From assembly GCA_964598205.1 (NCBI GenBank), contig CAZRBB010000004.1:71156-135155 (forward strand): a DNA stretch of 64,000 nucleotides. The letters are read 5' to 3'. Positions within the stretch are counted from its first letter, which is position 1. Each line of letters begins with the position of its first letter. Origin of the DNA: an uncultured Candidatus Saccharibacteria bacterium (GTDB lineage: Bacteria; Patescibacteriota; Minisyncoccia; CAIUEV01; JAHKAQ01). Under the pieces are notes generated by a model. It was not told the origin of the DNA. It did no database searches and worked only from the letters and a program-made list of their open reading frames with translations. Below are positions 6,090-23,303 of this stretch, in pieces. The position numbers and the translations under genes are program-made.

Positions 6090-6368
6090 TAGAGGGTGTT
6101 AAACTTAAAAAAAATTCCCCAAAAGGGAACCTTTAATTTAACTCCATTTTAAGGATTAAGACAAGACCATTAGTTAATTTTTAATTTCGAATTTTGAATT
6201 TCGATTAAAGATCAAATTTTAAATTTTAAGGTAACTTTTACGAATTAACAATTTCGAATTTTGAATTTTGTAAGTTGTGTTTGTGGTGGTTGTCTTTTTA
6301 GAATAAAATACGAAAAATAGTTTAGGATGATAGCTAATAAAAATCGCTGAAGAAGTTTTTGTCCAATA

Positions 6369-7607: not shown

Positions 7608-10600
7608 GTGACAGTAAGAAAACAAAAAAAAGGTGGGATTAATGGTTTCCAACCCTTGGGGGTTTGGGGGCTTTTTATTGTTTTGGGAATCAGCTTGGTG
7701 ATGGTTTTTGGAGGGAATTCGGTTTGGGGAGCGGCGGAGGGGACGGAGGGGACGGAGATAACGGAGGGGACGGTCTGGGGTCGTTTTTGGAGTGGTGTTG
7801 ACCAAGGGGTAACGAGTTTTAAAGAAGGATTTTTAGCAACAACGAATAATCTAAAAAGCTATTTGGGAACAAGTGGACAGTTTATAGCTCGTTTTGGCAA
7901 GGAAAAAAACGAGAAAGAAGCCGAAGAATTGGCCAGCGTTATAGCTAGTCAAAAGATGGAAAAATGGTTGGAATGGTTTAGCAAGAACGGAGAAAGATTG
8001 GAGGAAATTGCTAACGGGGAAAATTTTAACAACCTGTATCTTTCTGGAGCAATAGATGGTCAGAATATTGCCAATAGAAGCTTGAATGGAAATCTTAAAA
8101 TAATTCCTGGATCCATTACCGGATTAGTAATTGCCAACGGTTCTGTTAGTAAAGAAGATATTCTTTGGCGGGGAATTACTTCTGTTAACTTACATGCCAA
8201 TGCGGTAACTACGAGAATTATTAAGGACGGAACTATTATCGGTGCCGATCTTTCAGATGATCTTAGTTTTTCTACTACGGGGACCATCCACGCTGACAAT
8301 ATTAATGGGAATCATTTAATAGTGAAAGATGGTTCAACGCTTTCTGGAGATACGGTTTTTAATGGGGGGGCTTTTTCCCATATGGGAACAACTTTTCTAG
8401 TCAACGAGACTGGAGATGCCACTTTTGATTCTGATGCGGTCACCACTTTTTCTGGGTCAAGATTGGAATTGGTAGCGGACGGTGGCGGGGTAACGATTAC
8501 TTATCCCGATGGTCAAACTTTTCAATTAAAAGATAGAACTACTCGAATTGAAACTTTAGCCAACGGTTCTTTGATTTTAGGAAATGATTCTGACGCTACT
8601 ACCGTGGACGGTTCGGTGATTAATCTTTCTGGGAATACCGTTATTAACGGGACCATTACTGGGAATATTACCGATAACGCTAGTAATGCTTTTGATTTAC
8701 AAGAAGGAACGAATAAGTATCTCAACATTTCTACTGTGGACGGTTCGGAAAAAATTGATTTTGGTAACACAACCCTTAATCCGAGCTATGAATTTTTAGG
8801 AACGGGAGCAACCACTTTGGGCGGTAATTTAACAGTGAATGGAGCGTTAATAGTTGGAGGAGGTACCGCGGTGGCTGGCCATTTTTTACCAGGCTCAAAC
8901 AATGTTTACAATCTGGGTAGTAATACTTACCGCTGGGCTAATCTGTATTTGGGTGGGGAAACATTACATTTAGGAGCTTCGATTACCGACGAAGCGGTTG
9001 TTAGTTATGACACAACTATCAATATTTTAAACATTGGTACTGATGCAACCACCAACGGCGACATTGCTTTTTTTAGTGATGATCTATACCTAGATAAGTC
9101 TAGCGGCAACGTTGGCATTGGGACAACGGACCCGGGGGCGAAGTTGGATGTTGCTGGTGTGGCAACTTTCCGGGGAAACTTGCTTTTTTCCACCGACAAT
9201 ACACTAGACATTGGAGCTAATGGCGCAACACGACCAAGAACAGGGTACTTTGGGACATCGGTAGTCGCACCTAATTTTACCGGCCTGGCTTCCAGCGCTA
9301 CTATTCTTGCCACTGCTCGCGATCTTTATGGCTTTAGTTTTAATGGTTCTGTTGGTACTGTATCGGGAATAAATATTATAGCTAGCAGTTATGGCGGAAC
9401 AGGCAATGGTTTTACGAAATTTACTGGACCGACCACAGCAGAAAAAACTTTTACATTGCCCGATGCCAATGCCATTATTGCCAGAACTGATGCTGGACAA
9501 ACTTTTACTGGAGTCAATATTTTTACTTCCCCAACCTTCACCACTAGCATTGTTCCGACCATAAACGATGGAACAACCATTGGAACAACCACTTTGCAAT
9601 TTTCCGATTTATTCCTCGCTTCGGGAGCAACTATTAACTATGCTAACGGTGATACAACTCTCACTCACTCAACCGGAATTTTGACATTGGGAACAGGAAC
9701 ACTGAAAATCACCACCCCTACCAACACCGCCACCAGCGTGGCGACGATTGACGGAATGCAGACTCTGACGAACAAGACATTGACTGCATCTAACAATACT
9801 TTAGGTGGAGTGACTATGACATTGGGAACTGATGCTACTGGTGATATATATTATCGCAATGTTTCTGGATATTTGACTAGATTAGGAATTGGAACTTCTA
9901 ATCAGATTCTCCATGGTGGAACTACTCCAAGTTATTCTGCTATTTCTCTGACTGGAGATATTACTGGAATTTTACCACTAGCCAATGGTGGCACCAATAA
10001 AAATATAACGGCTTCATCTGGAGCAATCATATTCTCTGATACTGATTCAATGGAACTTACTCTAGTTGGGTCTTCTGGGCAAATTTTGGTTTCTCAAGGA
10101 GCAGGTACGCCTATCTGGTCAACTCCCACCTATCCTTCTGCTTCCGGATCTGCCGGGAAAATTATTCGTTCCAATGGCGCTAACAATATCTATTCAACAG
10201 CCGCTTTTGCCGATACCTACACCGCCTCAAATCTTCTATATTCAAACGGCGACAACACCGTGCAGGGATTGGCTACGGCCAATAACGGCGTTCTCATTAC
10301 CGGTGTCACCGGTGTTCCTTCTATTTCTTCTACTATTCCAGTGGTTACACAACAAAATATTACCAATGTAAATTCAGCCTTGGTTACAGGACTTCTTCAA
10401 ATTACCACCACGACTGGCGCGCTCACGAGTGTTACCACTTCGGCTGGAATAGACGCTCTCATTTCCAACAATACCGGTTCGGGGCTTTTGGTTTTCAACG
10501 ACGGTCCGACTTTTATTGCCCCGACTCTCGGTGTGGCTACCGCCACTTCAATTAACGGACTTACGATCAATACCACCACCGGCACGCTAGCAATTTCCAA

Positions 10601-13600
10601 TTTAAAAACGCTCACCGCTTCCGATTCCACAACTCTTGCCACCAATGCGATTACTCTCGCTGGTGGGGAAGTCATAACTTTTTCACCAACTAACGCTTTG
10701 TCACTTTTGACGACTGGAGCAACAAGTGTGACTTTGCCAACATCTGGAACATTGATCAGTACCGACCAAACAGTGGGGCAAACTATTGGATTAACTGGAT
10801 CAAGATTAACAAAACTTTGGGCAACCAACATTGAATCAACCAATGCTCCGACAGTTTTAGGTTCAGCAGTTTATTATACTGGTGGTACGGATGTTTCTTT
10901 GGCTGATGGTGGTACCAACGCTTCCCTTACTGCCAATAATGGAGGAATTTTTTATTCCACGGGAACAGCTGGAGCAATTTTAGCAGGAACATCGACAGCC
11001 AATCAAATTTTGCTTTCTGGTTCATTAACAACACCAGTGTGGTCCACCGCCACCTATCCGGTTACGACGATGGCTAATCAATTATTATATTCTTCAGCGC
11101 TTAACACGGTTACTGGTCTAACTACTGCCAACAGTGGTGTTTTGGTTACCAACGCCACTGGAAATCCTTCTTTCTTGGGCTCTCTGACTAATGGACAATT
11201 AGTCGTTGGTTCTACTGGAGCCATTCCAGTTTTAGCCACTTTGACCGGTACAGATAATCAAATCGTGGTGACCAATGGCGCTGGCACAATTACTCTTTCC
11301 ACCTCTCAAAGTATTAATACCACTTCCACTCCGCAATTCGCTAGAATAGGCTTGGGGGTTTCCGCTGACACTACGAACATTCTCACTGCTACATCTGTTT
11401 CTACTACCGATCTTTCAAAGACGCTAAATATCTCTCATACTGGAGCCATCACTGGCACGGGATACGCCGGATACTTTTCCAAAACTGGAGCATCAACTAC
11501 TAATGTTGGGCTTTATACGATTGCCACTGGGGCAACTAATAACTATGCGTTGCAAATAGATTCTGCCGTAGCTGGAGCGAATAATTATACAATCTATGCT
11601 AATGGCACGGCACAAAGTTATTTTGCGGGCAACGTCGGCATCGGGACGACAGCCCCTTCTTCATTATTAAGTGTTGGCGGTGCAGGTTCCAGTTCTTATA
11701 GTATTTCTGGGATAGGTTCTCAAAGTGGAATTTATGGCTCTGCAAGTGCTGGTTATACTGGAGTGTATGGTCTTTCTACATCTGGTGCTGGTATCTCTGG
11801 CTCTTCCACGAGTGGAGTGGGTGGTTATTTTACTTCTTCTGTTGGTTACGCACTTATTACAGGAAACGGCAACGTCGGCATCGGGACGACGGCACCAGAA
11901 TCAAAACTGCATGTTTCAGCAGATGGTGCTGTTCAAATTTTCATGGGCGATCTTTATAGTGATCTATCATATAATACGCCAGAATTCTCAGGCAGGAGAG
12001 CCAGAGGAACTCAATCATTGCCATCCGCAGTATTGGCGGGTGATACGCTAATGCTTGTTGGGGCTAGAGGATATATGGATACTGGGGGGTTTAGCGCAAA
12101 TAAAGCCGTCATACACATGTATGCTGCGGAAAATTTCACTTCTACTACAAACGGAACTTATATCACTTTTTCAACAACACCTATCGGATCAACATCAAGA
12201 GCCGTAAGGATGACAATAGGGGATGCTGGCAACGTCGGCATCGGGACGACGAGTCCGGGGGCGAAGTTAAATATAAAAAGTAATAATGATGCTTCTGCTT
12301 TAAAACTTACATCATCTCTTGGTGGTACTATGATGGATCTTTACGAACTATCAGATGGAAGAATTCAATTCAATCTTTATGATGGGAGCGGAATTACCAA
12401 GGTACGATTAGATGGAAATGCAGATAATTACATAACCGGTGGCAACGTGGGAATCGGGACGACGGGACCTTCGGCCCTCTTGCATGTTGGATCCGGCGGT
12501 ACTCCCGGCTACGCAACTACGGGTGACGCTTATTTCCAAAATGATGTTGAAATTGACGGAACACTTTATACCGCAGGATTATCGGTACTTGGCAGCATTA
12601 TTCCTGCAACGGACGACACTTACGATCTTGGTTCATCGTCTTACCGCTGGAGAGATCTTTATCTTGGTCCAACATCATTACACCTAGTTTCAACGGTTGG
12701 GGAAACAACAACGGCCAGAGATTGGAAGTTGTCTATTCAGGAAACAGACGGCACAAGCGAAGGCAATTTGCGTATTATGGAAGGCGCAACGGAAATAATG
12801 AACATACAACCCGGCGGCAACGTCGGCATCGGGACGACGGGACCGGGGGCAAAACTGAATGTAGTAGGTGGTTCCGCTGGGACAAATACAGGTATTTTTA
12901 GAATCGAAAACAATACTAATGCTTCTGCTAACACAGGTGCATCAGTTGAGTTTTACAGTTACGATAACACGCCAGCTCAGGTAGAAATGGGACGAATTGG
13001 CACATTGGTAACAACTGGAACTGCCGGAGCGGCTTCATCTGATTTAGCTTTCTCGGCACGCAATAGTGGAACATTGACGGAATGGATGAGAATAAAAGGT
13101 AGCGGCAACGTCGGCATCGGGACGACGGGACCAGCGACAAAATTACAAATAGCTGGTACGGGTTCGACAAATGGACTTTCTTTTGGTGATGCGGCAGATG
13201 TGATTTTATATCGAAATTCAAGTACGCAACTTAGAATGAATAGTGATTTGCGGACAAGTGGTTCTAGCGGCTTGACTGTGGATGGGCCTGCTTTTTCTCT
13301 TGGTGGATTTAACACGCTTTATAACGCCGCAAGTGGTTTGCAATTTAAAGCGAATGCTACTTCGCAGATGCAACTATTTGCATCAGGTGGTTTAGCACTT
13401 GGTAGTACTTATTGGTCAACTGACCCAGGGGCAGGGAATTTAACAATACAAGGCAACGTCGGCATCGGGACGACGGCACCGGGGGCAGCCTTGGATGTGA
13501 TTGGAACAGGGATATTTCAATATGCGGCCTTGGAAAATGAAGGTGAATTTCTAAGAATATCGAGAACCTCTCAGACAACTCGATATAGTTCTTTATGGGC

Positions 13601-16600
13601 GAGACAGTCAGTTACAAAAGCGAATAATTATATTGGATTTAGAGTGTATGATGGTAATTCGACAGATTATGCTCCTGTAGAAATGATGAGAATAACAGGA
13701 AGTGGCAACGTCGGCATCGGGACGACGAATCCGACTGCGAAATTGGAAATAGGGGGAGATAATAATGGACTAAAAATATCTGGAGCAACATATGTTAGTG
13801 CTGAATTATTAGATGGTGGTAGCAATGATTCAGGGTACTTATCTCTTTATCGTGCTGGAGTTAAGGCTTTTTCTATTGGTGCTAATGACACATATTTCAA
13901 TTACGGCAACGTCGGCATCGGGACGACGGGACCGGCACAGAAACTGCATGTGTTCGGTGCGACGCCTCAAGTGGAAATTGACTCGTCATCTGGCACTAAC
14001 CCTTCATTGTTCTTAACAACGACAAATGACACGACTCAAGGAATAAAGTTTAGTTATGACCAAGGGGCTGGGGACGGGTATATTGATAATGTTTGGAACA
14101 ATGCTGCTGGAGATTTATTTTTTAGACTACGCACTCTCGGAACTCCAGTGGATGTCTTGTCGTTAAAAGCGAGCGGCAACGTCGGCATCGGGACGACGGC
14201 ACCGGTAAGCAAATTTCATCTATATGATAGCACGGGCTCCGGGTTAAGTATTGATACGGGAAATGGTTATGCGAATTTGTATTTCTTGGACGGTGGAGTT
14301 GAAAGATGGAGGTTTAGAAACGATGGTGCGACCGATGACTTTCACTTAATGGAAGATGCATCGGACATACGTCTTACTGTTCAAGAAGGCGGCAACGTCG
14401 GCATCGGGACGACGAGTCCACTGTCAAGTTTCTATGTAGGTAGTACTACTCCAACTAGTCTTTCCTACGCCCTTGGTAATTGGAACTCATACAAGGCAGC
14501 CATTGTAGATACATTCAATTATGCATCGGTTGATGATGAACATACTTCGTTTTTATCAGACCTGACCGTGAATTCGACCGTAAATAGTAGTGAACAGATG
14601 GCAGCGATTGCAGCATCAATAACAGTTAGTACGGCAAGTACGGCAGATACTGGGTCACTTAGGACTATATGGTCAAATTTGCAACATGATGGTACTGGAA
14701 CAGTTGCTGCCGCTCGGTTGTTTAATGGTGAGTTGGCAAATAAATCCACTGGCACAATGACTAAGGCGGATGGACTTGGTGTAGCTTTTAGAAATACAGG
14801 AGGGGGAATAATCAGTGATTTGAGAGGTGTTAACATTATTGACCTAGTAAACACTAGTGGGACAATCACTAATACATATGGGATATATACTGGCGACTTG
14901 TCATTAGGTACTCAAACGAATATGCCATTTTCTTTTTATGCCTCTGACTCTGATACATACAATTATTTTGCGGGCAACGTCGGCATCGGGACGACGGCAC
15001 CGGTAAGCAAATTTCATCTATATGATAGCACGGGCTCCGGGTTAAGTATTGATACGGGAAATGGTTATGCGAATTTGTATTTCTTGGACGGTGGAGTTGA
15101 AAGATGGAGGTTTAGAAACGATGGTGCGACCGATGACTTTCACTTAATGGAAGATGCATCGGACATACGTCTTACTGTTCAAGAAGGCGGCAACGTCGGC
15201 ATCGGGACGACTGGGCCATTGGTAAAGTTGCATATAACTACTGATGATGTTAATGGTAATGGCATACGAATTCAAAATGATAATGCTCTTGGCACTTGGA
15301 AATATGGAACGCTCGCTATGATGGGGCAAACTGGAAACAGCATTGTTGATTGGCCAAATGCTTTAGTAATTGAAGGTGCTGGCAATGGGGGAACTGTTAT
15401 TAGTAGTGCAGCAGGGGATATTAAATTTAATCCTGGTAGAATACAAGGAATGATAGTAAAGCAAACAACAGGCAACGTCGGCATTGGGACGACCGCGCCG
15501 GGATTTAGATTAGATGTTCCAGCGGTTTCTGCTAGCAACTATGATGTTGCAAAAATAGGCGGATTTGTAATTGCAAGAGCAGGGACTGATGTTAGTAATT
15601 TACTTATAACTGGTGCAAGTTGGGCTGGTGGAAGTACATTAACAGCTACCGCAACTACTTATGCCAGTTATCAACAAACTAGCGGAAATCATTATTTTTA
15701 TACTGCTACGGGACAAACCGTGGGAAATGCAGTTACTACTGTTATTCCAATGACAATAGTGGGTAATGGAGCAGTGGCCAATACTTTGTATCTAACTGCG
15801 GGCAACGTCGGCATCGGGACGACGAGTCCGACTCAAGCATTACAAATTACAGGAAGTCAATTTCAACAGCTGTCTTTACAAACAACTGGTGCTTATACAA
15901 CAAAAACTTACTTTGCGAATTATGCTGCAATAGGGAACTTGAACTCGTATTGGTCTATGAATAGAAATATTGGGACTGGTGTATTTGATAATATTGAACT
16001 GCCAGCGGCGGCAATCGCAATGAATGGCTCTACGGGAAATTCATCTATTCAATTTTATACTGCAGCCGCAAATAACACCGCACCATCTGTGCGTATGACA
16101 ATCGACAATAGTGGCAACGTCGGCATCGGGACGACGAGTCCGGGTGATAAGTTGAGTGTAGATGGCACAACTTATGGCACAACTATATCTGTCACAGGTA
16201 GAAGTGCATCATGGCCTGGCAATGCGACGGATTTGTCAAAACTTAATTTTAATGGATTAGTAGGTGCTTCTGGTGGAACACTGGCTTCTATAGCAACGAG
16301 GTTTGGGAATTCTGGTTCTGATTTTAGTAGCCAACTTCTTTTTTCAACAACTGACGCTTCCTTTGTTTTACAGGAAAGGATGAGAATCAATAACCTCGGC
16401 AACGTCGGCATCGGGACGACAGCACCGGGGGCATTATTGCACGTCGGACCAAACTCAGTTGTGTACCAACCAACCGTTGGAACTAAACAGCTAATTCTCT
16501 CTGGTGCTGGAAATACAAACGCAATTGATAATGGGACAATGATGATTTTTAGTGGTGGGTATAATTCAACGCTTGCACAAAATGCGACTTATGGTGCAAT

Positions 16601-18164
16601 TGCTGGTTTAAAAGAAAATGGGACCGACAATATTGCGTCTGGTTATTTAGGGTTTTACACCGGTCGTACTGGAGATGCCAATGCCTTGGAAAAAATGAGA
16701 ATTACAAGCACTGGCAACGTCGGCATCGGGACGACGGGACCGGTAGAGGCTTTGGATGTTTTGGGAAAAATAAAAGCAAGCAGTTCGGTTCAAGCAAATG
16801 GCGTAGCAATAGGTGGATTAAACGGCCTTTATTATAGTTCTTCCACAAGGGGTAAATATGGTTTTGGTTCTGTGACAGCGCTAGGAGCTTATCCACTCGA
16901 TTTATCTTCTGGTGATGTTACGACGTATACTGATGGATATATCAAATTCAGTACCGCCGGAACAGAAGCGATGCGAATTCAATCAAGTGGCAACGTCGGC
17001 ATCGGGACGACGGGACCAGGTGGTAGACTTCATATCGCAGATGGAATTACGGGCAATGACGCGACATATCGGGGAAAGTTAATTATTGAGAGCGGGCAAA
17101 CAGATAATGCCAGTAATGGATTGGAATTTAAAGCCAGCGCAGGGGCGAGCGGGTATGGTTATCGTTTGGCAACCGTTTATCCTACTTCTGGCATTGACCT
17201 TCGTTTTCAATCCAGACAAAATTCAGCTACTTGGTCTGATGTAATGACAATAAATACAGTCGGCAACGTCGGCATCGGGACGACGAATCCGGGGTATAAG
17301 TTGCAAGTTAGACCGGCTACTGATGTCAATCTTGGTTTTGGAAGTAATGCTGTTGGTGGTTTGCTAAATGTGGCTAATGATGCCGCATCAGTTGTTGATT
17401 TGACAACTAATGCGTGGGAATATCACTTTCAATCAAATGGAAACGAAAGGGTTACAATTCTCAACGGCGGCAACGTCGGCATCGGGACGACGGGGCCGGG
17501 GGCACGGTTAAATGTAGTTGATGTAAATTATGGATTTAATAATGTTGGAAATCTATTTATTCGCACTTCTGACGCACAGGCGGCAGACATTGGTGGAATG
17601 ATTGGACTGGGAGGTATTGGAAATGACGCAGGAACGGGAATTACTTCCTTTGCGACAATAGCAGGAAGAAAAGAAAATGGAACAACTTCAAATTACAGTG
17701 GATATTTGCAATTCTCAACATCTAATCCAGGAAGTACAAAGAATGAATGGATGCGAATCACAAGCACCGGCAACGTCGGCATCGGGACGACGGCACCCTC
17801 CCAAAAACTTCATGTTGAAGGTCACTGTCTTACCGGCGACACCCTAATCGCTGTTCGTCGTAAAAAAAGACGAAATTCTGAAAACGGAGAAAATGAAATT
17901 GACCCAGATGACCTAGACTTTTCTTTATCCGATTTTGCGTCTTCTAGCGATCAAGAAACAGAAGACTGTATCCTAGTACCAATTTGCAACATTCTCCCCG
18001 GAGACGAGGTTTTATCGCTCAATGAGGAGACAAATCGCACCGAGTATCACCCCATAAATGGCCTCCTAGACATGGGCATTCAAGAAATTTATCAAATTCG
18101 CACTAAGTCTGGACGGGTAATTCGGACTACCGGAAATCATCCGTATCTGGTAAAAATGAACTGA
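7608..18164 (+). CDS. Giant (3518 aa) tail-fibre-like repeat surface protein = N-extein fused to the N-terminal half of an intein
   Basis: N-terminal signal/TM anchor. Tail-fibre-type motifs (ILPLANGGTN...). About 23 modules each starting GNVGIGTT(A/S/G/N)P..KL.V. Last 112 aa are Hint N-terminal blocks A (CLTGDTLI) and B (TGNHPYL). Confidence 0.85.
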   Translation: MTVRKQKKGGINGFQPLGVWGLFIVLGISLVMVFGGNSVWGAAEGTEGTEITEGTVWGRFWSGVDQGVTSFKEGFLATTNNLKSYLGTSGQFIARFGKEKNEKEAEELASVIASQKMEKWLEWFSKNGERLEEIANGENFNNLYLSGAIDGQNIANRSLNGNLKIIPGSITGLVIANGSVSKEDILWRGITSVNLHANAVTTRIIKDGTIIGADLSDDLSFSTTGTIHADNINGNHLIVKDGSTLSGDTVFNGGAFSHMGTTFLVNETGDATFDSDAVTTFSGSRLELVADGGGVTITYPDGQTFQLKDRTTRIETLANGSLILGNDSDATTVDGSVINLSGNTVINGTITGNITDNASNAFDLQEGTNKYLNISTVDGSEKIDFGNTTLNPSYEFLGTGATTLGGNLTVNGALIVGGGTAVAGHFLPGSNNVYNLGSNTYRWANLYLGGETLHLGASITDEAVVSYDTTINILNIGTDATTNGDIAFFSDDLYLDKSSGNVGIGTTDPGAKLDVAGVATFRGNLLFSTDNTLDIGANGATRPRTGYFGTSVVAPNFTGLASSATILATARDLYGFSFNGSVGTVSGINIIASSYGGTGNGFTKFTGPTTAEKTFTLPDANAIIARTDAGQTFTGVNIFTSPTFTTSIVPTINDGTTIGTTTLQFSDLFLASGATINYANGDTTLTHSTGILTLGTGTLKITTPTNTATSVATIDGMQTLTNKTLTASNNTLGGVTMTLGTDATGDIYYRNVSGYLTRLGIGTSNQILHGGTTPSYSAISLTGDITGILPLANGGTNKNITASSGAIIFSDTDSMELTLVGSSGQILVSQGAGTPIWSTPTYPSASGSAGKIIRSNGANNIYSTAAFADTYTASNLLYSNGDNTVQGLATANNGVLITGVTGVPSISSTIPVVTQQNITNVNSALVTGLLQITTTTGALTSVTTSAGIDALISNNTGSGLLVFNDGPTFIAPTLGVATATSINGLTINTTTGTLAISNLKTLTASDSTTLATNAITLAGGEVITFSPTNALSLLTTGATSVTLPTSGTLISTDQTVGQTIGLTGSRLTKLWATNIESTNAPTVLGSAVYYTGGTDVSLADGGTNASLTANNGGIFYSTGTAGAILAGTSTANQILLSGSLTTPVWSTATYPVTTMANQLLYSSALNTVTGLTTANSGVLVTNATGNPSFLGSLTNGQLVVGSTGAIPVLATLTGTDNQIVVTNGAGTITLSTSQSINTTSTPQFARIGLGVSADTTNILTATSVSTTDLSKTLNISHTGAITGTGYAGYFSKTGASTTNVGLYTIATGATNNYALQIDSAVAGANNYTIYANGTAQSYFAGNVGIGTTAPSSLLSVGGAGSSSYSISGIGSQSGIYGSASAGYTGVYGLSTSGAGISGSSTSGVGGYFTSSVGYALITGNGNVGIGTTAPESKLHVSADGAVQIFMGDLYSDLSYNTPEFSGRRARGTQSLPSAVLAGDTLMLVGARGYMDTGGFSANKAVIHMYAAENFTSTTNGTYITFSTTPIGSTSRAVRMTIGDAGNVGIGTTSPGAKLNIKSNNDASALKLTSSLGGTMMDLYELSDGRIQFNLYDGSGITKVRLDGNADNYITGGNVGIGTTGPSALLHVGSGGTPGYATTGDAYFQNDVEIDGTLYTAGLSVLGSIIPATDDTYDLGSSSYRWRDLYLGPTSLHLVSTVGETTTARDWKLSIQETDGTSEGNLRIMEGATEIMNIQPGGNVGIGTTGPGAKLNVVGGSAGTNTGIFRIENNTNASANTGASVEFYSYDNTPAQVEMGRIGTLVTTGTAGAASSDLAFSARNSGTLTEWMRIKGSGNVGIGTTGPATKLQIAGTGSTNGLSFGDAADVILYRNSSTQLRMNSDLRTSGSSGLTVDGPAFSLGGFNTLYNAASGLQFKANATSQMQLFASGGLALGSTYWSTDPGAGNLTIQGNVGIGTTAPGAALDVIGTGIFQYAALENEGEFLRISRTSQTTRYSSLWARQSVTKANNYIGFRVYDGNSTDYAPVEMMRITGSGNVGIGTTNPTAKLEIGGDNNGLKISGATYVSAELLDGGSNDSGYLSLYRAGVKAFSIGANDTYFNYGNVGIGTTGPAQKLHVFGATPQVEIDSSSGTNPSLFLTTTNDTTQGIKFSYDQGAGDGYIDNVWNNAAGDLFFRLRTLGTPVDVLSLKASGNVGIGTTAPVSKFHLYDSTGSGLSIDTGNGYANLYFLDGGVERWRFRNDGATDDFHLMEDASDIRLTVQEGGNVGIGTTSPLSSFYVGSTTPTSLSYALGNWNSYKAAIVDTFNYASVDDEHTSFLSDLTVNSTVNSSEQMAAIAASITVSTASTADTGSLRTIWSNLQHDGTGTVAAARLFNGELANKSTGTMTKADGLGVAFRNTGGGIISDLRGVNIIDLVNTSGTITNTYGIYTGDLSLGTQTNMPFSFYASDSDTYNYFAGNVGIGTTAPVSKFHLYDSTGSGLSIDTGNGYANLYFLDGGVERWRFRNDGATDDFHLMEDASDIRLTVQEGGNVGIGTTGPLVKLHITTDDVNGNGIRIQNDNALGTWKYGTLAMMGQTGNSIVDWPNALVIEGAGNGGTVISSAAGDIKFNPGRIQGMIVKQTTGNVGIGTTAPGFRLDVPAVSASNYDVAKIGGFVIARAGTDVSNLLITGASWAGGSTLTATATTYASYQQTSGNHYFYTATGQTVGNAVTTVIPMTIVGNGAVANTLYLTAGNVGIGTTSPTQALQITGSQFQQLSLQTTGAYTTKTYFANYAAIGNLNSYWSMNRNIGTGVFDNIELPAAAIAMNGSTGNSSIQFYTAAANNTAPSVRMTIDNSGNVGIGTTSPGDKLSVDGTTYGTTISVTGRSASWPGNATDLSKLNFNGLVGASGGTLASIATRFGNSGSDFSSQLLFSTTDASFVLQERMRINNLGNVGIGTTAPGALLHVGPNSVVYQPTVGTKQLILSGAGNTNAIDNGTMMIFSGGYNSTLAQNATYGAIAGLKENGTDNIASGYLGFYTGRTGDANALEKMRITSTGNVGIGTTGPVEALDVLGKIKASSSVQANGVAIGGLNGLYYSSSTRGKYGFGSVTALGAYPLDLSSGDVTTYTDGYIKFSTAGTEAMRIQSSGNVGIGTTGPGGRLHIADGITGNDATYRGKLIIESGQTDNASNGLEFKASAGASGYGYRLATVYPTSGIDLRFQSRQNSATWSDVMTINTVGNVGIGTTNPGYKLQVRPATDVNLGFGSNAVGGLLNVANDAASVVDLTTNAWEYHFQSNGNERVTILNGGNVGIGTTGPGARLNVVDVNYGFNNVGNLFIRTSDAQAADIGGMIGLGGIGNDAGTGITSFATIAGRKENGTTSNYSGYLQFSTSNPGSTKNEWMRITSTGNVGIGTTAPSQKLHVEGHCLTGDTLIAVRRKKRRNSENGENEIDPDDLDFSLSDFASSSDQETEDCILVPICNILPGDEVLSLNEETNRTEYHPINGLLDMGIQEIYQIRTKSGRVIRTTGNHPYLVKMN
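17826..18161 (+). other. Split-intein N-terminal fragment (IntN, about 112 aa) at the C-terminus of the giant protein
   Basis: Cys1 in CLTGDTLIAV (block A). TGNHPYLV (block B, conserved T..H). Followed directly by a stop codon. No intein C-terminal blocks in this ORF. Confidence 0.8.
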
Positions 18165-18193
18165 ACTTAAAAATTTTTAACTAAGTTTTCTTT

Positions 18194-19753
18194 ATGTTTG
18201 GCGGTGGATTTTTGAAAAATTTTAGGGGCACTTGTATCACGCTTGCCAAACGAGTAGTCGATTTATTTCAAAGTCGTGATACCGAACCCTTGCCGATTCG
18301 TGATACGAAACCAGTCCTTAAAAAAATACGGAAAACCAAAAATTCCCAAAATTCGGTCAAAATTTTAGCCAAAGAAAAAATTCCCATGGGCGTGGAAATT
18401 TTAGAACCGGAACCTAGGCCCAATCTTTTGGAAATTTTTTGTCCGTATTGCTCTGGCAAAAATTTTGTAAAACGCGGTTTACGGCAAAAGAAAAAAGAAA
18501 AAGTTCAACTTTATCTTTGCCGTGATTGTCGGCGGTCGTTTACTCCCGGAGCGGTGAAAGGTCGGCATTATCCAATGGAGGTGATTCTTAACGCCATTAG
18601 TTTATATAACCTGGGGTACAGTTTGGAAAAGGCGGGAAAGATGGCATCTAAAATAGAGGGATTCAATAGGGAAGGAAAAAAAGAGCAGGGGGCGGGACTC
18701 AAAGGGACAAGGTTCCAGAGGGGACTGCTTACAACATCGGGCAACTTCGGGAGCGGGATGATCGGCAGCGGGACGGTGCTAAGTTGGGTGAACCGCTACC
18801 GTCATCTCTGTGCTTTTTCCCGAATGCGGGAATTTGCCATAAAAATGCTACCGCCGAATGAAATGATTTCTTCGGCTACCCTAGCGCATCGGCAACTCTA
18901 CCGATTCCGGCACCATCGTGCCAAAACAATCTTGATTATTAAAGAAGATTTTAAGAACAGTCCCTTTTGGCCATTAAAAGAATTTTTGGATTTAGTGCCG
19001 GTGGAATGTCCACATCAATATTTTCAAGAAGGTTTGCGGGCGTCAGAAGCGCCGCTTACTTTTTCCAAAACGGAAATGATTGTGCGGGGCAAAAATAATT
19101 TTGCCAACAAAATGGCTAAGTTTGCGCTAGAATCGGCCACTAAAGCCAAAGATCGCCACGATGTTTTACAGCGATTTATGTTGGCCAACGATTCGGTAAC
19201 AGTAGCTACAGAAGTGCCGATTTATCTTCGTCGGGAAGATTTAGCACACATGCAAACACAGTTGGGGTTTGAGCTGTATAAAAAGAGGATTCGTTCTAGA
19301 AAGAAGGAAGACAAGGCCCAAGGGGGGGCGAGGCCCAAGGGGGACTACTTACAACATCGGGCAACTTCGGGAGCGGGAAGATCGGGCAGCGGGACGGCAT
19401 TGGAACTTTTTCCCCTAGAAGAAATACCCAAATTAATTACCGGTCACATTGATTTTGTGCAGATTAGAAACGGAATGATCCATATTTTGGATTACAAGCC
19501 AAAAGCCGCCAAAGAAAGACCGATTGAACAATTAACCATTTACGCGTTGGCGCTTTCCCGCTTAACTGGCTTACGGGTGTATCATTTTAAGTGCGCTTGG
19601 TTCGACGAAAAAGATTATTTTGAATTTTTCCCACTGCATGTGGTTTCCAAGCCGGGAAAGAGGCGTTATCGGCGGAAAATTCGGACGATTGAAGGGACTT
19701 ATAAATTAAACGACGATCCGTTAAAGGTGGCGAATATTAAGGCTCAAGGCTAA
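18194..19753 (+). CDS. Putative free-standing homing-type nuclease: N-terminal C4 zinc ribbon (IS1/IS1595-transposase-like) plus C-terminal PD-(D/E)xK RecB/Cas4-family nuclease motifs
   Basis: CPYCSGKNF...x17...CRDCRRSF zinc ribbon. C-terminal GHIDFV (motif II), ILDYKPK (D/ExK), QLTIYALAL (QxxxY). Lies between the two intein halves. Contains out-of-frame 56-bp direct repeats and a G7 tract, so the ORF may be composite or decaying. Confidence 0.5.
   Translation: MFGGGFLKNFRGTCITLAKRVVDLFQSRDTEPLPIRDTKPVLKKIRKTKNSQNSVKILAKEKIPMGVEILEPEPRPNLLEIFCPYCSGKNFVKRGLRQKKKEKVQLYLCRDCRRSFTPGAVKGRHYPMEVILNAISLYNLGYSLEKAGKMASKIEGFNREGKKEQGAGLKGTRFQRGLLTTSGNFGSGMIGSGTVLSWVNRYRHLCAFSRMREFAIKMLPPNEMISSATLAHRQLYRFRHHRAKTILIIKEDFKNSPFWPLKEFLDLVPVECPHQYFQEGLRASEAPLTFSKTEMIVRGKNNFANKMAKFALESATKAKDRHDVLQRFMLANDSVTVATEVPIYLRREDLAHMQTQLGFELYKKRIRSRKKEDKAQGGARPKGDYLQHRATSGAGRSGSGTALELFPLEEIPKLITGHIDFVQIRNGMIHILDYKPKAAKERPIEQLTIYALALSRLTGLRVYHFKCAWFDEKDYFEFFPLHVVSKPGKRRYRRKIRTIEGTYKLNDDPLKVANIKAQG
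18721..18776. repeat. 56-bp direct repeat, copy 1 (inside the nuclease ORF)
   Basis: gggactgcttacaacatcgggcaacttcgggagcgggatgatcggcagcgggacgg. Near-identical copy at 19341-19397. The two copies are read in different frames, so the repeat is at DNA level. Confidence 0.8.
19341..19397. repeat. 56-bp direct repeat, copy 2 (one extra G), preceded by a G7 homopolymer at 19322-19328
   Basis: gggactacttacaacatcgggcaacttcgggagcgggaagatcgggcagcgggacgg. Confidence 0.8.
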
Positions 19754-19931
19754 ATTCAACCAACGCTTTTTTGATCTCCTCTTTTTTGGTAAAAAGATTA
19801 AAATCCAAAGATTGCCGGTGCCCAATGTGAAGAGCAATGGCGGTACCGCCAGCCAAACCAAAATCTCGGGAAAAATCACTAATTAATGGCAAGATTTTTA
19901 CTTGTTCGGAAGTTAAAATCTCAGTGTGCAT
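19737..19931 (-). pseudogene. N-terminal remnant of an AbiEii-family (DUF1814) nucleotidyltransferase toxin gene, truncated
   Basis: 64-aa ORF with LAGGTAIALHIGHRQSLDFNLF, resembling the AbiEii N-terminal GGTAL...R.S.DiDf motif. A stop follows and no downstream continuation exists in any frame of 60 aa or more. Overlaps the 3' end of the nuclease ORF. Confidence 0.35.
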
Positions 19932-20317
19932 GTTTGTTAAAATAAAGAGTGAAATAATTTTTTATTTCTGGTCGGTAATTGGTTCTTTTTTTTGATTTTT
20001 TGGTTTGGTTTTTAAAGATAGTCGCTATTTTTTGGAGGCCAACCACGGTCAAAAGTTTTTAAAAATCCTGCCAATCGCCGTAATTCAAAACGGTTTCTGT
20101 GATTGATTCAACAGACAAAACGGAAGGGTCTTTAACTGACCAAAAAAGCATTTTTCTTTGGACAGCAAATTGTTTCAGCTCTTTATCCATGATAGAATAA
20201 TAGCATATTTGGTTGGAAAAATCATTGGTTTGTGATTAAAGTTTTGTTTTTAATATCTTCTTAAATTATTTTGGTAATATTAAGTTAAGATTTTTGGTGA
20301 GGAGATGATAAAAATCA

Positions 20318-20767
20318 ATGTATCGCAATTATGTAAAAAGAGCGGTTAAGAATTTTACCGATTTAGATGTTTACCAAAAGCTTTTGGAAGGAAGTGTTTT
20401 TGTGGCAAAAGTGGTGGTGCCGGCTTTTTGGGAAAAACAAACGGAGACAAAAAAAGACAAAACGGCGGAGCTGATTATAGAAAAGCTAACAGTGCATACT
20501 CTTTATCTTCCAGAGCTGATTGCCAAGGCTCATTCTGTTCGTTTTGGAGCGGGGGAGCAATGTTTGGCATTTTTAGAAGAAGCAATGCTTGGCTGTAATT
20601 TAGCGGTGGTCTATTTGGAACAAACGCGGGATATTTGCGAAACTGGGTTAGAAACCGAACAATTTTCCGAACAGATTAAAAAATATTTTCAGGTAAGACA
20701 AAAAGTGTTAAACTTGCAAAGAGTTTGGAAGAAATTTATAGAAATCAAAAAACAAGAACAAAACTAA
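20318..20767 (+). CDS. Four-helix-bundle protein (TIGR02436 / 23S-rRNA-IVS-protein-like; Avd-like fold)
   Basis: 149 aa, all-helical. N-terminal FTDLDVYQK...resembles the F.DL.VWQKA signature of this family. Stop lies 4 nt before the IntC gene start. Confidence 0.4.
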   Translation: MYRNYVKRAVKNFTDLDVYQKLLEGSVFVAKVVVPAFWEKQTETKKDKTAELIIEKLTVHTLYLPELIAKAHSVRFGAGEQCLAFLEEAMLGCNLAVVYLEQTRDICETGLETEQFSEQIKKYFQVRQKVLNLQRVWKKFIEIKKQEQN

Positions 20768-20771
20768 AATT

Positions 20772-21059
20772 ATGTTTGGTTTTTTAAAGAAAGTTGCTAA
20801 AAAATGGCTCAAGGTTTCCCAGTTAAAAGTGGGAGCAAAAATTGCTGTGCCCAGAGCAGCGGCAATGGCTGGTTATGGTGGACTGGTTGCTAATGATTCC
20901 TTACTAGAAGAAGGCGAAGGGGATTATATGTGGGACGAAATTACCGAAATTAAAAAAGTTGGTCGAGAAAGAGTTTACGACATTGAAGTAGACGGAACGC
21001 ATAATTTTATTGCGGGGAATATTAATAATAAATTATTCGGCGGAATTTTTGCTCACAAC
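20772..21059 (+). other. IntC (C-terminal intein half; 96 aa from the first ATG, 44 aa if translation starts at 20928)
   Basis: Terminal His-Asn (AHN) followed by +1 Thr. Block F VYDIEVDGTHNFIA. Confidence 0.75.
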
Positions 21060-22670
21060 ACCTATGTCACCGGCAACGTCGGCATCGGGACGACGACACC
21101 GACCTACCGTCTTCAACTCCCCAATGTAGGCGATGCTACCGGGCAGGGCCAAGCCAATGCTTGGGTAGCATATTCAGATAGAAGTTTAAAAGAAGAGGTT
21201 GATCCAATCACTAATGCTCTAAACAATGTTCTTCTCTTACAAGGAGTAGACTTTACTTGGAAGGGTCAAGGAATTAGAAGCTCTGGCTTTATTGCTCAAG
21301 ATGTAGAAGAGGTTATTCCTAGTCTAGTATCCACAGACATTAACGGAATTAAGTCTTTAGACTATGGAAGATTTACTCCTTACCTAGTAGAAGCAATCAA
21401 AACCCAACAACTAAACATTACTACTAACACGAGCCGTCTTGATCTCCTAGATCAAAAGATAATGGAAGAGGCGAGTGGTTCTTTAATCCTTAATGCTACT
21501 GGCAATAGTATCCAAGCCAAAGATCTCTTAGACGCTACCTTACAAGGTGTAGCTACTAAAGTTAAATCCGGCACTATTTCCGACACTGACTTTATTTTAC
21601 CGATCAATGGTTTAATGGCAGTAGACTCAGCTAATGGAAGGGTCTATTTCCGTTACGACAATGATTGGCATTATGTTAATCAAACAGGAGGCTTTCAGAT
21701 TCCTAATTACGAAACCGCTCCGTACGAAAAGCTATCTCAAAACTCTAAGATTAAAGAAAATGAAGCTCTTCCTTTTGAATCAAGTAACTATCCTCACTAC
21801 ATAACAGAAAAGTTAACTCCCGGAGAGCTTCTGATTCCTTTTGTAGATGAATACCTTCCAGACGGAGCTGTCCATGGTCTGTATGCTAGATTCGAAGATG
21901 TTAAAGAAAAAATGTTTACTCAAGAAAAGAGCCAGTTAGTAGATCTAGCCCTTAAAACCGCAGAGAACATAGAAACTATTAAAGAGTTTAAAGAATCAGT
22001 AGATAAAAACCTAGCCGTAATTTCTTCTAACTTTGAATCATTAGATAACAACATTGACCGAAACGAAAAGAATGTTGAAAGCTTAGAAACCAGAACAGAA
22101 GCTACAGAAGCTAAAAATAATGATCTATCTTCCCGAGTTTCTGTCTTAGAGTTTTCTCTTTCTGAATCCCAACTAGCCGGAGAGCGCTTAGAGTTCCTTA
22201 CCCAAATCTTAAACCCAGCTGAAGACGGAAGCCTGACTATTTACAATGATCTGAATTTAGAAGGCAGATTGAGCGCCGAGGAAGTGGTGCTTAACAAGAT
22301 CACTATTAAGACCGATTCCGAAGAAACCCGCACGGTAGGGCAGGCGGTGATTGTTGGATTAGCTAAAGATGAAGATGCTGATGGCAAAGACGACAACACC
22401 GGAGCCGATGGTAAGAGCGTGATTATAAAAACCAGAATGGTTACGGAAAGTTCCAAGATTTTTTTAACCTTTGAAAACAATCCTCAATCATTGTATTGGG
22501 CAGAAAAAGTAACCAATGAATCTGGTGCTCTTATTGGTTTTAAGATTCTTCTAAACAGTCCGGCGTCGGCGGATATTAAAGTTTCTTGGTGGATTCTAGA
22601 AGAAGACGATCCGGCCAAGCAAACAACAAGCACTCCGGTCATTCCTTCTTCCCAATCAGAAGCACTTTAA
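20772..22670 (+). CDS. Split-intein C-terminal fragment (IntC) fused to C-extein: final GNVGIGTT repeat, peptidase-S74 intramolecular chaperone domain, coiled coil and C-terminal beta domain
   Basis: Blocks F/G: ERVYDIEVDGTHNFIAGN ... GIFAHN | T. The C-extein starts TYVTGNVGIGTTTP using the same 23-mer as the giant gene. SDRSLKEEV...GFIAQDVEEVIPSLV...LDYGRFTPYLVEAIKTQQ matches the S74 (CIMCD) consensus. Internal starts at M32 and M53 (20928) would give an IntC of 44 aa. Confidence 0.8.
   Translation: MFGFLKKVAKKWLKVSQLKVGAKIAVPRAAAMAGYGGLVANDSLLEEGEGDYMWDEITEIKKVGRERVYDIEVDGTHNFIAGNINNKLFGGIFAHNTYVTGNVGIGTTTPTYRLQLPNVGDATGQGQANAWVAYSDRSLKEEVDPITNALNNVLLLQGVDFTWKGQGIRSSGFIAQDVEEVIPSLVSTDINGIKSLDYGRFTPYLVEAIKTQQLNITTNTSRLDLLDQKIMEEASGSLILNATGNSIQAKDLLDATLQGVATKVKSGTISDTDFILPINGLMAVDSANGRVYFRYDNDWHYVNQTGGFQIPNYETAPYEKLSQNSKIKENEALPFESSNYPHYITEKLTPGELLIPFVDEYLPDGAVHGLYARFEDVKEKMFTQEKSQLVDLALKTAENIETIKEFKESVDKNLAVISSNFESLDNNIDRNEKNVESLETRTEATEAKNNDLSSRVSVLEFSLSESQLAGERLEFLTQILNPAEDGSLTIYNDLNLEGRLSAEEVVLNKITIKTDSEETRTVGQAVIVGLAKDEDADGKDDNTGADGKSVIIKTRMVTESSKIFLTFENNPQSLYWAEKVTNESGALIGFKILLNSPASADIKVSWWILEEDDPAKQTTSTPVIPSSQSEAL
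21174..21420 (+). other. Peptidase S74 / C-terminal intramolecular chaperone autoproteolytic domain
   Basis: YSDRSLKEEVDPITNALNNVLLLQGVDFTWK...SGFIAQDVEEVIPSLVSTDINGIKSLDYGRFTPYLVEAIKTQQLN. The Ser-Lys dyad motif SD(R/K)xLK is conserved. Confidence 0.8.
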
Positions 22671-22835
22671 TTAATTCCGAATTTTGAAATTACGAATAAA
22701 GATTTTTCTTCTTGGTCTTCCTTAAAACCAATGCAATACTTCTTTTTTGATTCTTGTCTGTAAATTGTCAATTAAATATTTGTGTGTTTAGATAATTAAG
22801 AATCGATTAATTTTAAATTAAATAAATCTAAAATC

Positions 22836-23303
22836 ATGGAAAGAACTTTGGTCATTATTAAACCAGATGCGCTTCAAAGAAATTTGATTGGGGAAATAAT
22901 TTCTCGTTTTGAAAGAAAGGGATTAAAAATTATTGGCATGAAGATGATGTCGGTAGATAATGTTAAGCTAGATGAACATTATGGCAAGTATTCTGACAAG
23001 CCATTCTTTGTTCATCTTAAAAAATTTATGCAGAGTTCGCCAGTAGTGGCAATGGTTTGGGAAGGTGTGGAGGCCGTTTCAGCGGTGCGCTTAATTGCTG
23101 GATCCACCAAAGGAAGAGAGGCAGATGCTGGCACAATCCGAGGCGATCTTTCTATGAGTCTACAAACCAATGTGATTCATGTTTCCGATCCCAAAGAAGA
23201 TCCAGAAGCGGAAATTAAGAGATTTTTTGGGGACGACGAACTTTTTGATTATGAAAAGATAGACATGTTTTATCTTTATTCTCCAGACGAATTAGAAAGC
23301 TAA
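22836..23303 (+). CDS. ndk: Nucleoside diphosphate kinase
   Basis: ERTLVIIKPDALQRNLIGEIISRFERKGLKIIGMK; NDK fold signature. Confidence 0.9.
   Translation: MERTLVIIKPDALQRNLIGEIISRFERKGLKIIGMKMMSVDNVKLDEHYGKYSDKPFFVHLKKFMQSSPVVAMVWEGVEAVSAVRLIAGSTKGREADAGTIRGDLSMSLQTNVIHVSDPKEDPEAEIKRFFGDDELFDYEKIDMFYLYSPDELES

Follow-up and report, generated by a model that had tools for sequence, protein, structure and literature searches.

A gene pair for a Cas4/RecB-like nuclease and a four-helix protein between the halves of a split intein: a candidate homing-type cassette of giant fibre-like genes in Patescibacteria

Fractured genes have been modelled as arising when a free-standing nuclease gene invades an intein (Dassa et al. 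2009; PMC2677866), and the nuclease families hitherto associated with inteins are LAGLIDADG, HNH, GIY-YIG, Vsr-like/EDxHD and EndoVII-like (PMC2677866 among other sources). The restriction-endonuclease fold has been described in the homing nuclease I-Bth0305I, which is of the EDxHD/Vsr-like type (PMC3239194). Here we analyze a stretch of 64,000 nucleotides (henceforth the window) from an uncultured Candidatus Saccharibacteria bacterium (contig CAZRBB010000004.1), in which the open reading frame (ORF) 18194-19753 lies between the two halves of a split intein within a giant repeat gene. An earlier note on this DNA, made from the sequence alone, had proposed that this ORF is a novel free-standing homing nuclease. 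We find that it encodes a PD-(D/E)XK superfamily member of the RecB/Cas4 type, with a zinc-ribbon head and a constant companion gene coding for a four-helix protein. Our favored reading, to which we assign a probability of about one half, is that it is the nuclease of a mobile two-gene cassette of giant fibre genes, which has invaded the intein slot and promotes the copying of both intein and cassette. Searches of a literature library, directed at the repeat motif, at inteins of Patescibacteria and at intein nucleases of the Cas4-like kind, yielded no account of the present system and no paper in which the repeat motif appears.

A PD-(D/E)XK nuclease between the halves of a split intein

The locus is organized as follows:

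7608-17825, plus strand: giant fibre-like protein, N-extein part (3,406 aa), with 23 copies of a GNVGIGTT repeat encoded by the near-invariant 24-mer GGCAACGTCGGCATCGGGACGACG
17769-17792, plus strand: last 24-mer 5' of the intein, ending 33 nt before the insertion point
17826-18164, plus strand: N-intein half (IntN), 112 aa and stop, with Cys1 at 17826 (CLTGDTLIAV...) and block B TGNHPYL (...TGNHPYLVKMN)
18194-19753, plus strand: nuclease ORF, 519 aa, ATG start, zinc ribbon and PD-(D/E)XK domain (RecB/Cas4-like)
20318-20767, plus strand: partner gene, 149 aa, four-helix bundle, with its stop 4 nt before the start of the C-intein
20772-21059, plus strand: C-intein half (IntC), 96 aa, ending ...VYDIEVDGTHNFIAGN...IFAHN
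21060-22670, plus strand: C-extein, with Thr+1 at 21060, a 24-mer at 21072-21095, a Peptidase_S74 chaperone domain and a tail

The upstream ORF (7608-18164) specifies a giant repeat protein of 3,518 aa, the last 112 residues of which are the N-intein, while the downstream ORF (20772-22670) joins the C-intein to the C-extein. The hallmarks of a split intein are complete, namely Cys1, the TxxH of block B, the terminal HN and Thr+1 (CLTGD...TGNHPYL; ...IFAHN|T), and on this account we predict a class-1 split intein of the Cys1/Thr+1 type. The Pfam model Intein_splicing recovers the N-half with 27.0 bits (profile positions 9-72) and the C-half with 29.5 bits (positions 114-149), neither of which reaches the cut-off of 35.8 set for the full-length domain. 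The nuclease gene is placed between the end of IntN at 18164 and the start of IntC at 20772, i.e. between splicing blocks B and F. This is the insertion point of intein endonucleases and, as the earlier note had observed, the position at which fractured genes carry their homing endonuclease. A cassette lodged in this slot turns the intein into a split intein and its host gene into a fractured gene. The window is chromosomal, with ndk, rpsL, rpsG, fusA and tuf coming after the locus, and a near-identical locus is present in a second sample. A promoter and terminator scan gave results at or below the expectation from shuffled sequence.

Within the nuclease ORF the following elements can be delineated:

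18440-18529, plus strand: C4 zinc ribbon of the IS1/IS1595 type, CPYC at aa 83-86, x22, CRDC at aa 109-112
19208-19225, plus strand: TEVPIY strand, holding the invariant E340, the candidate acidic residue of motif I
19442-19555, plus strand: catalytic core with motifs II to IV (GHIDFV, ILDYKPK, QLTIYALAL)

The superfamily assignment draws on profile, motifs and fold alike. The Pfam model PDDEXK_1 (PF12705) matches the window protein with 23.1 bits, above its gathering score of 22, and a compact homolog from locus L215 (loci compared are labelled with L-numbers; 80 come from species-representative genomes and others from metagenomes) with 28.2 bits over residues 209-381 (~170 residues); the same domain is precomputed for most homologs. 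The ordered RecB-family motifs listed in the earlier note are all in place: E340 as the candidate of motif I is followed by H418 and D420 in GHIDFV (motif II; aa 417-422, nt 19442-19459), D433 and K435 in ILDYKPK (motif III; aa 431-437, nt 19484-19504), and Q446 and Y450 in QLTIYALAL (motif IV; aa 446-454, nt 19529-19555). These residues are invariant in an alignment of 55 homologs, a strict regular expression for the motifs matches 104 of 120 homologs, and the catalytic residues are unbroken in the window copy. The protein has a restriction-endonuclease-like alpha/beta core; its AlphaFold2 model is moderate overall, with a mean predicted local distance difference test score (pLDDT) of 61, and is usable for aa 80-165 (ribbon and helices, about 71-89) and aa 400-500 (the nuclease domain, 72-83). 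Searches of the nuclease stretch with PADLOC and PHROGs gave only Cas4-like or exonuclease matches, and sequence searches of the PDB, both with the single protein and with a profile, gave just generic zinc ribbons such as those of RPB9 and L37a. No match to the known homing endonuclease families (LAGLIDADG, HNH, GIY-YIG, His-Cys box, EDxHD/Vsr-like, EndoVII-like) was found in Pfam, NCBIfam or PHROGs. Nor is the protein Cas4 proper, because it fails the equivalog model (TIGR00372, 12.4 bits against a cut-off of 65) and lacks the four cysteines of the Fe-S cluster, its single invariant cysteine outside the ribbon being C467. The middle region (aa 198-360), rich in invariant residues, matches no known family.

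The head of the protein is, judging from its sequence, an IS1/IS1595-like zinc ribbon followed by helices, predicted to be of the DNA-binding type. Such a C4 ribbon had been noticed in the earlier note, and its four cysteines prove invariant across the same 55 homologs. The NCBIfam model IS1_IS1595_Zn (NF050000) scores 27.8 bits (E 2.7e-6), 0.2 bit short of its cut-off of 28, Pfam Zn_ribbon_InsA scores 15.9 bits, and IS256_N_4Cys scores 24.7 bits against a cut-off of 27, the IS1 head also being matched; an HTH-like helical region (aa 128-165) follows. This likeness to the zinc-binding domains of IS1, IS1595 and IS256 raises the alternative that the protein is an insertion sequence (IS)-like transposase, in which an IS1/IS1595-type head is coupled to a PD-(D/E)XK domain, as in TnsA-type nucleases, and moves its own element. 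Several copies per genome, the name 'transposase-like protein' attached to some homologs by JGI, and the Y1 transposase-like genes found directly 3' of the partner in one sub-clade speak for it. We nevertheless hold it to be very improbable: neither Pfam nor NCBIfam detects a DDE domain in the window protein (the transpos_IS1 equivalog gives 21 bits against 100), no convincing terminal inverted or direct repeats bracket the ORF or the cassette, there are no target duplications around the latter, the similarity between paralogs starts at the nuclease gene without defined ends, and insertions are confined to giant genes. Since both the DDE domain and the element ends are missing, as the earlier note had surmised, the protein is not an IS1/IS1595 transposase. 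Y1 (HUH) transposase-like genes (PF01797) as such lie next to the cassette at 19 of 91 loci, the window locus not being one of them; in the sub-clade of L043, L064, L067, L068, L073 and L075 they are found 100-180 nt 3' of the partner.

The nuclease family is large, comprising >3,200 clusters at 90% identity in a word-indexed search and 2,736 clusters at 50% identity (E <= 1e-3) in a profile search of 1.84 billion representatives. Its members are almost entirely from Patescibacteria, and identities across classes are 45-67%, with many invariant residues. The earlier note had missed this membership; NCBI records already name homologs 'PD-(D/E)XK nuclease family protein'. The window protein, a putative DNA-cutting enzyme, probably belongs to a homing-type family that has not been described as such. 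Distant homologs (33-35% identity) are found in Acidobacteriota (L082, 9941-11059; L084, 8190-9290); these lack partner, giant gene and 24-mers, and have similar upstream ORFs in common, which may signify a different mobile context.

The ORF had also been judged by eye to be GC-richer than its neighbors. Its GC content at third codon positions (GC3) is indeed 0.446, versus 0.314 +/- 0.025 in ten other genes and 0.35 in the giant gene (0.31-0.35 among the neighbors). Across 52 loci, however, the GC content of the nuclease tracks that of the host (r = 0.83, with regression to the mean), and the raised GC3 therefore says little on recent transfer and is weak evidence of foreign origin. We accordingly dropped GC content as a decisive sign of such transfer.

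The nuclease and the partner form a conserved two-gene cassette and are an obligate pair: in about 75 of 84 loci the gene directly 3' of the nuclease is a partner homolog, and in many cases the stop codon of one overlaps the start codon of the other. AlphaFold models the partner as a confident four-helix bundle (pLDDT 91), for which Foldseek returns 2rld, the S23/23S-rRNA-IVS protein, with probability 1.0 and Avd of the diversity-generating retroelements (DGRs; 8ube) with 0.99, at weak E values of 0.24-0.26. Pfam including PF05635 gives no match to the partner, a comparison of its family with two genuine intervening-sequence proteins (IVPs) by hhalign is not significant (probability 0.2%), and a profile search of the PDB gives noise only. 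IVP genes ride in rRNA insertions of bacteria of the Candidate Phyla Radiation (PMC11270868). The occurrence of genuine 23S_rRNA_IVP cargo in the same gaps, together with an IVP-like ORF in the partner's place in L046 (PF05635, E 2.9e-4), is suggestive with regard to the IVP likeness of the partner. We propose that the latter might serve as a nucleic-acid-binding or regulatory subunit.

Two contexts of the cassette and a conserved insertion site

The arrangement in the window recurs. At about 27 of 84 loci the cassette is enclosed by N- and C-inteins of the same family in a giant gene with GNVGIGTT repeats, in the order N-extein/IntN, nuclease, partner, IntC/C-extein, with all parts co-directional and stops and starts often overlapping; in L001, L046, L047 and L055 IntN and the nuclease are even fused in frame as one ORF. 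Most of the remaining cassettes directly follow an unsplit giant gene and are oriented like it; in all, about two thirds of the cassettes are outside inteins. Certain unsplit giant genes bear contiguous inteins of the same family (L064, L087). The contiguous inteins of this family are mini-inteins: they measure 224-348 aa, their linkers are unstructured, and an endonuclease domain is lacking. A neighbor-joining tree of the nucleases mixes copies from split inteins with downstream copies, the window nuclease being sister to a clade of the latter; the cassette is one that changes between these contexts, the interior of the intein and the 3' flank of the giant gene. One metagenome-assembled genome (MAG) has three nuclease copies with 84-87% DNA identity next to far more divergent giant genes, the similarity of these paralogs beginning at the nuclease gene itself and being without defined element ends. 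A few nuclease copies are frameshifted or fragmented. As to individual inteins, the 2,481-aa giant gene of L087 (456-7901) apparently carries three inteins of this family, judged by its three C-junctions of the form ...AHN|TY, and only the middle intein (348 aa) is delimited at both ends, and L055 has a 224-aa mini-intein (5510-6184) in the same giant gene as a nuclease-fused intein; none of the inteins of L087 and L055 has an endonuclease domain of its own.

The insertion site is likewise conserved. The junction consensus reads ...GNVGIGTTxPxxKLHVEGx | C(V/M/L)TGDTLLPIRRR ... (I/F)AHN | TY(I/V)xGNVGIGTT..., with the core KLHVEGx|TYxxGNVGIGTT kept across loci. On the N-extein side the conservation of DNA starts exactly at the repeat word and extends for ~60 nt up to the junction; farther 5' the sequences are unrelated, and the exteins have only about 30% of residues in common. 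The fused junction of the window, ...AAACTTCATGTTGAAGGNNNN|ACNTATNTNNNNGGCAACGTCGGC..., is bracketed by two ultra-conserved 24-mers, the first C-extein copy (21072-21095) beginning 12 nt past the junction, and when extended to span both it reads ...GGCAACGTCGGCATCGGGACGACGGCACCCTCCCAAAAACTTCATGTTGAAGGTCAC|ACCTATGTCACCGGCAACGTCGGCATCGGGACGACG... An uninterrupted double-repeat junction occurs at none of the 91 loci, which had prompted the idea that the GNVGIGTT motif is duplicated as the intein inserts. This idea was rejected when a pattern scan of 241 million metagenome records yielded five intein-less junctions in four contigs, all of which read GNVGIGT(T)xPxQKLHVEGN|TYISGNVGIGTT. The intein-less fusion site that the earlier note had put forward as the cleavage substrate is therefore an existing allele. 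Occupied and empty alleles both exist, the empty ones being rare, and no such pair was seen in closely related strains. A 64.7-kb contig (L215; 31% GC) has within 5 kb an HVEGN|TYIS empty junction, an intact nuclease homolog without a recognizable partner and two C-terminal fragments of nucleases (features at 354-400, 1812-3008, 3563-3712 and 4862-5071).

Taken together, the recurrent arrangement, the IntN-nuclease fusions, the mini-inteins without a nuclease, the conserved site and the empty alleles are the grounds on which we favor homing, along with the sporadic multi-copy spread in the MAG with three paralogs, the intermixed tree, the decayed copies, the unbroken catalytic residues of the window copy and the selfish cargo in the surroundings; a homing function of the nuclease is plausible. 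According to this proposal the nuclease would cut site-specifically in giant-gene copies without the element, at or next to the fused junction given above, whereupon recombinational repair from an occupied copy would transfer the intein along with the cassette. Protein trans-splicing would rejoin the halves of the giant protein, and this, we propose, is why the host tolerates the insertion.

Several observations weigh against such a role. With about two thirds of the cassettes outside inteins, intein homing cannot be the sole activity of the family, and there are unsplit giant genes with no intein within 7-10 kb (L002, L011, L061, L067, L068). In L215 the empty junction lies in cis, 1.4 kb 5' of the intact divergent homolog (35% identity), and hence at least that homolog does not remove it in cis. 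No relatives of the nuclease were found in the viral contigs of IMG/VR. The unusually strong conservation of the family, with its GC content ameliorated to that of the hosts, fits long residence as well as mobility. Finally, to our knowledge an obligate partner protein is no feature of known homing endonucleases. The part of the earlier note that made the ORF a free-standing homing nuclease is partly supported: it gains from recurrence, fusions, mini-inteins, site and empty alleles, and is called into question by the cassettes outside inteins and by L215.

The gaps in the inteins and the flanks of the cassette also house variable cargo: NYN, Bro-N, IVP, MNT/HEPN, HicAB and RelE/XRE genes, toxin-antitoxin pairs, GIY-YIG, AbiE remnants and Y1 transposase-like genes. 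Examples are at L002 6509-7732, L020 9155-9730, L036 2262-3412, L089 9489-10880, L061 7887-9677 and L067 5527-7251. Small selfish modules seem to have hot spots both in the intein gap and in the stretch from the stop of the giant gene to the nuclease. In the window the gap holds, besides the nuclease and the 149-aa partner ORF, an AT-rich spacer (19754-20317) with two remnants:

19737-19931, minus strand: truncated AbiEii-like N-terminal fragment, 64 aa (Pfam AbiEii, E 8e-4), overlapping the stop of the nuclease
20059-20190, minus strand: 43-aa ORF, resembling an ORF that precedes the nuclease in L072

The two have the look of debris from a toxin-antitoxin module, the AbiEii-like fragment being a passenger in the spacer. 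The cassette might itself be such a passenger, a toxin-antitoxin- or defence-like module in permissive positions that has no part in the mobility of the intein or the giant gene. The company of MNT/HEPN, HicAB, RelE/XRE, AbiE remnants, NYN and Bro-N in the same positions, the layout of a nuclease with a small partner, which is typical of such modules, and a weak PADLOC match to an Argonaute-associated Cas4-like nuclease would suit this explanation. However, the pair of nuclease and partner is the constant core around which the other genes vary, its linkage to 24-mer-bearing giant genes at 27 of 28 loci in fixed orientation is unlike that of defence islands, some nucleases are fused in frame to the N-intein, and PADLOC finds no significant match to any defined defence system. 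We therefore deem it distinctly unlikely.

The 24-nucleotide word in giant genes and cassettes

The GNVGIGTT repeat is fixed not only as a peptide but also in the DNA, where it is the 24-mer GGCAACGTCGGCATCGGGACGACG with all eight synonymous positions included. The word and its derivatives are distributed in the window as below:

9105-17792 (23 copies) and 21072-21095, plus strand: 24-mer copies in the giant gene
18715-18779, plus strand: insert copy 1, ~65 nt and GC-rich, in hypervariable loop 1 of the nuclease, encoding TTSGNFGSGMIGSGT, with a core resembling the 24-mer
19335-19400, plus strand: insert copy 2, in hypervariable loop 2, with its 5' part in a different frame (HRATSGAGRSGSGT)

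All 24 matches to the word with <=3 mismatches, 17 of them exact, are on the plus strand and in the giant gene, where none are expected by chance; a genome-wide uptake or Chi-like signal was dropped as an explanation on account of this distribution. Given the codon usage of 22 other genes of the window, the chance of the exact 24-mer is 4e-7 per GNVGIGTT. Over 272 occurrences in 32 loci with a GC content of 36-56%, the first seven third-codon positions are constant in 85-93% and the eighth in 72%, and GGCAACGTCGGCATCGGGACGACG is the modal sequence in 29 of these loci; the neighboring conserved residues have varied codons.

Borders of homology fall at the word. The giant-gene paralogs of one MAG (L006 1323-1874 versus L010 657-1208) are 92% identical exactly from the last 24-mer onward, and an internal duplication of 264 nt in the giant gene of the window (14175-14438 and 14973-15236, 96% identical) starts exactly at a 24-mer. 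These look like recombination breakpoints. Further, of the 30 loci whose upstream flank is 3 kb or longer, 27 have 24-mers 5' of the nuclease, always on the same strand; without the two Acidobacteriota outliers it is 27 of 28. This raises the alternative of a recombination-promoting nuclease that serves the host, making with its partner regulated breaks or nicks at or near the 24-mers of the adjacent giant gene and thereby diversifying a surface adhesin by stimulating module shuffling, duplication, deletion or exchange with imported DNA, its location in the intein being incidental. The synonymous fixation of the word, the breakpoints and the linkage just described argue for it, as do the strong conservation of the family, the obligate partner and the tolerance of an empty intein site in L215. 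Yet at least 120 viral contigs (L091-L210, GC 29-65%) have the exact 24-mer in an equally conserved form, and none of them encodes the nuclease or the partner. Its conservation is hence independent of the nuclease, and the notion that the word is conserved because of the nuclease was abandoned. The connection between nuclease and word is a putative one, twenty-four targets in its own genome would need tight control, and the selfish cargo and multi-copy paralogs point to a mobile element. On balance we consider the host-serving explanation unlikely, placing it ahead of the other alternatives.

The cassette genes have themselves received DNA resembling the word. The two ~65-nt inserts of the window nuclease have an identical core of 31 nt. 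Sequences like the 24-mer (<=5 mismatches, either orientation) are found in 6 of 91 nuclease genes, for an estimated chance expectation of ~0.01. G-N-(I/V/F)-G-x-G-(T/M) peptides occur in variable loops of 29 of 120 nuclease and 12 of 81 partner homologs, and in none of the shuffled sequences. The nuclease gene exceeds the remainder of the loci about ten-fold in density. That such DNA enters in both orientations and all frames also favors the host-serving alternative. More generally, the stray inserts are consistent with repeated breakage and repair at the cassette and are no proof that the nuclease reads the word. A more speculative possibility, which we rate well below homing, is that the cassette is a break-inducing module that would read GGCAACGTCGGCATCGGGACGACG or the double-word junction and drive shuffling, patch insertion and intein spread in giant adhesin genes. 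If true, it would represent a programmed nuclease-based diversification distinct from DGRs, with the 24-mer as a portable recombination site common to phage fibre genes.

Related inserts (GNIGSGT, GNVGIGT and similar) were also seen in C-intein ORFs and in the tails of giant genes, in both orientations. A structured RNA was considered for the ~65-nt insert and dropped, given folding z-scores of -0.07 and +1.9; an Rfam search of 17000-23000 gave no match. Other features were noticed in the variable regions of the nuclease: ARAGORN reports tRNA-like genes antisense within the nuclease ORF of L021 (10361-10434, minus strand), L028 (583-667, minus strand) and L036 (800-875, minus strand), read as Asp, Ile and Pro, respectively. 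In L021 and L028 they are situated in loop 1, whereas that of L036 is in the variable part of the N-terminus. A matching antisense translation of the T-arm, 'GIEPP/GVEPLL', is seen in that loop in several homologs from the databases.

Relationship to described systems

Should the nuclease prove to act in homing, the few known families of homing endonucleases would be joined by a seventh or later structural solution, in which a transposase-like zinc-ribbon head is combined with a domain of the Cas4/RecB type. No other homing family would then work with an obligate partner protein, and the system would be the first of fractured genes in cellular ultra-small bacteria, where a surface protein is affected and not an enzyme of replication. 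Potential tools are the split intein pair (112 + 96 aa, Cys1/Thr+1) and a nuclease with a long target. Independently of how the nuclease is read, the 24-nt word offers a testable handle on the exchange of parts among modular fibre and adhesin genes.

In terms of fold, a precedent is I-Ssp6803I, the PD-(D/E)XK homing endonuclease from a group I intron of a cyanobacterial tRNA, which uses the restriction-endonuclease fold in homing as we propose for the window nuclease. Neither it nor I-Bth0305I has any detected sequence or profile similarity to the window nuclease, and both are small, intron-encoded and without a QxxxY motif or a zinc-ribbon head. The Cas4, RecB, AddB and Dna2 proteins share the PF12705 domain, whereas the window nuclease is found without a helicase or CRISPR context. 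Like the IS1 InsA/IS1595 N-terminal domain (NF050000), its C4 ribbon and ensuing helices are at the N-terminus of a DNA-processing enzyme; unlike those transposases, it has neither the DDE catalytic domain nor IS ends. The partner, in turn, parallels the 23S rRNA IVP and DGR Avd proteins (PF05635) in being a four-helix bundle, as seen in the top-probability matches to 2rld and 8ube, and its locus differs from that of Avd in having no reverse transcriptase or template repeat.

With regard to recombination, the Rpn (YhgA-like) proteins may be compared: these PD-(D/E)XK nucleases occur in multiple copies and have a stimulating effect on recombination; they belong to a different Pfam family (PDDEXK_2) and, unlike the window nuclease, have no zinc ribbon. 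In T-even tail-fibre genes, the crossover points are His boxes, short motifs of conserved DNA at the borders of modules. They differ in sequence from the 24-mer, which is conserved far more widely.

The closest parallel remains the fractured genes of Dassa et al.: there as in the window locus, a separate nuclease ORF parts the two halves of a split intein, occupies the canonical insertion point of endonucleases and runs in the direction of the host gene. The nucleases of those systems are GIY-YIG and Vsr-like (EDxHD) enzymes and their hosts are DNA-metabolism enzymes of phages, whereas here a Cas4/RecB-like PD-(D/E)XK domain with an IS1595-type zinc ribbon sits in a giant repeat fibre protein of a cellular patescibacterium. 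The window system is further set apart by its obligate four-helix partner and variable cargo, and its nuclease family by having most of its members outside inteins. What is new here is a large uncharacterized family, its pairing with a partner, its two contexts and a conserved site with rare empty alleles; as a fractured-gene nuclease, it would be new in its catalytic family, its obligate partner, its cellular host, the structural nature of the host gene and the frequency of free-standing copies.

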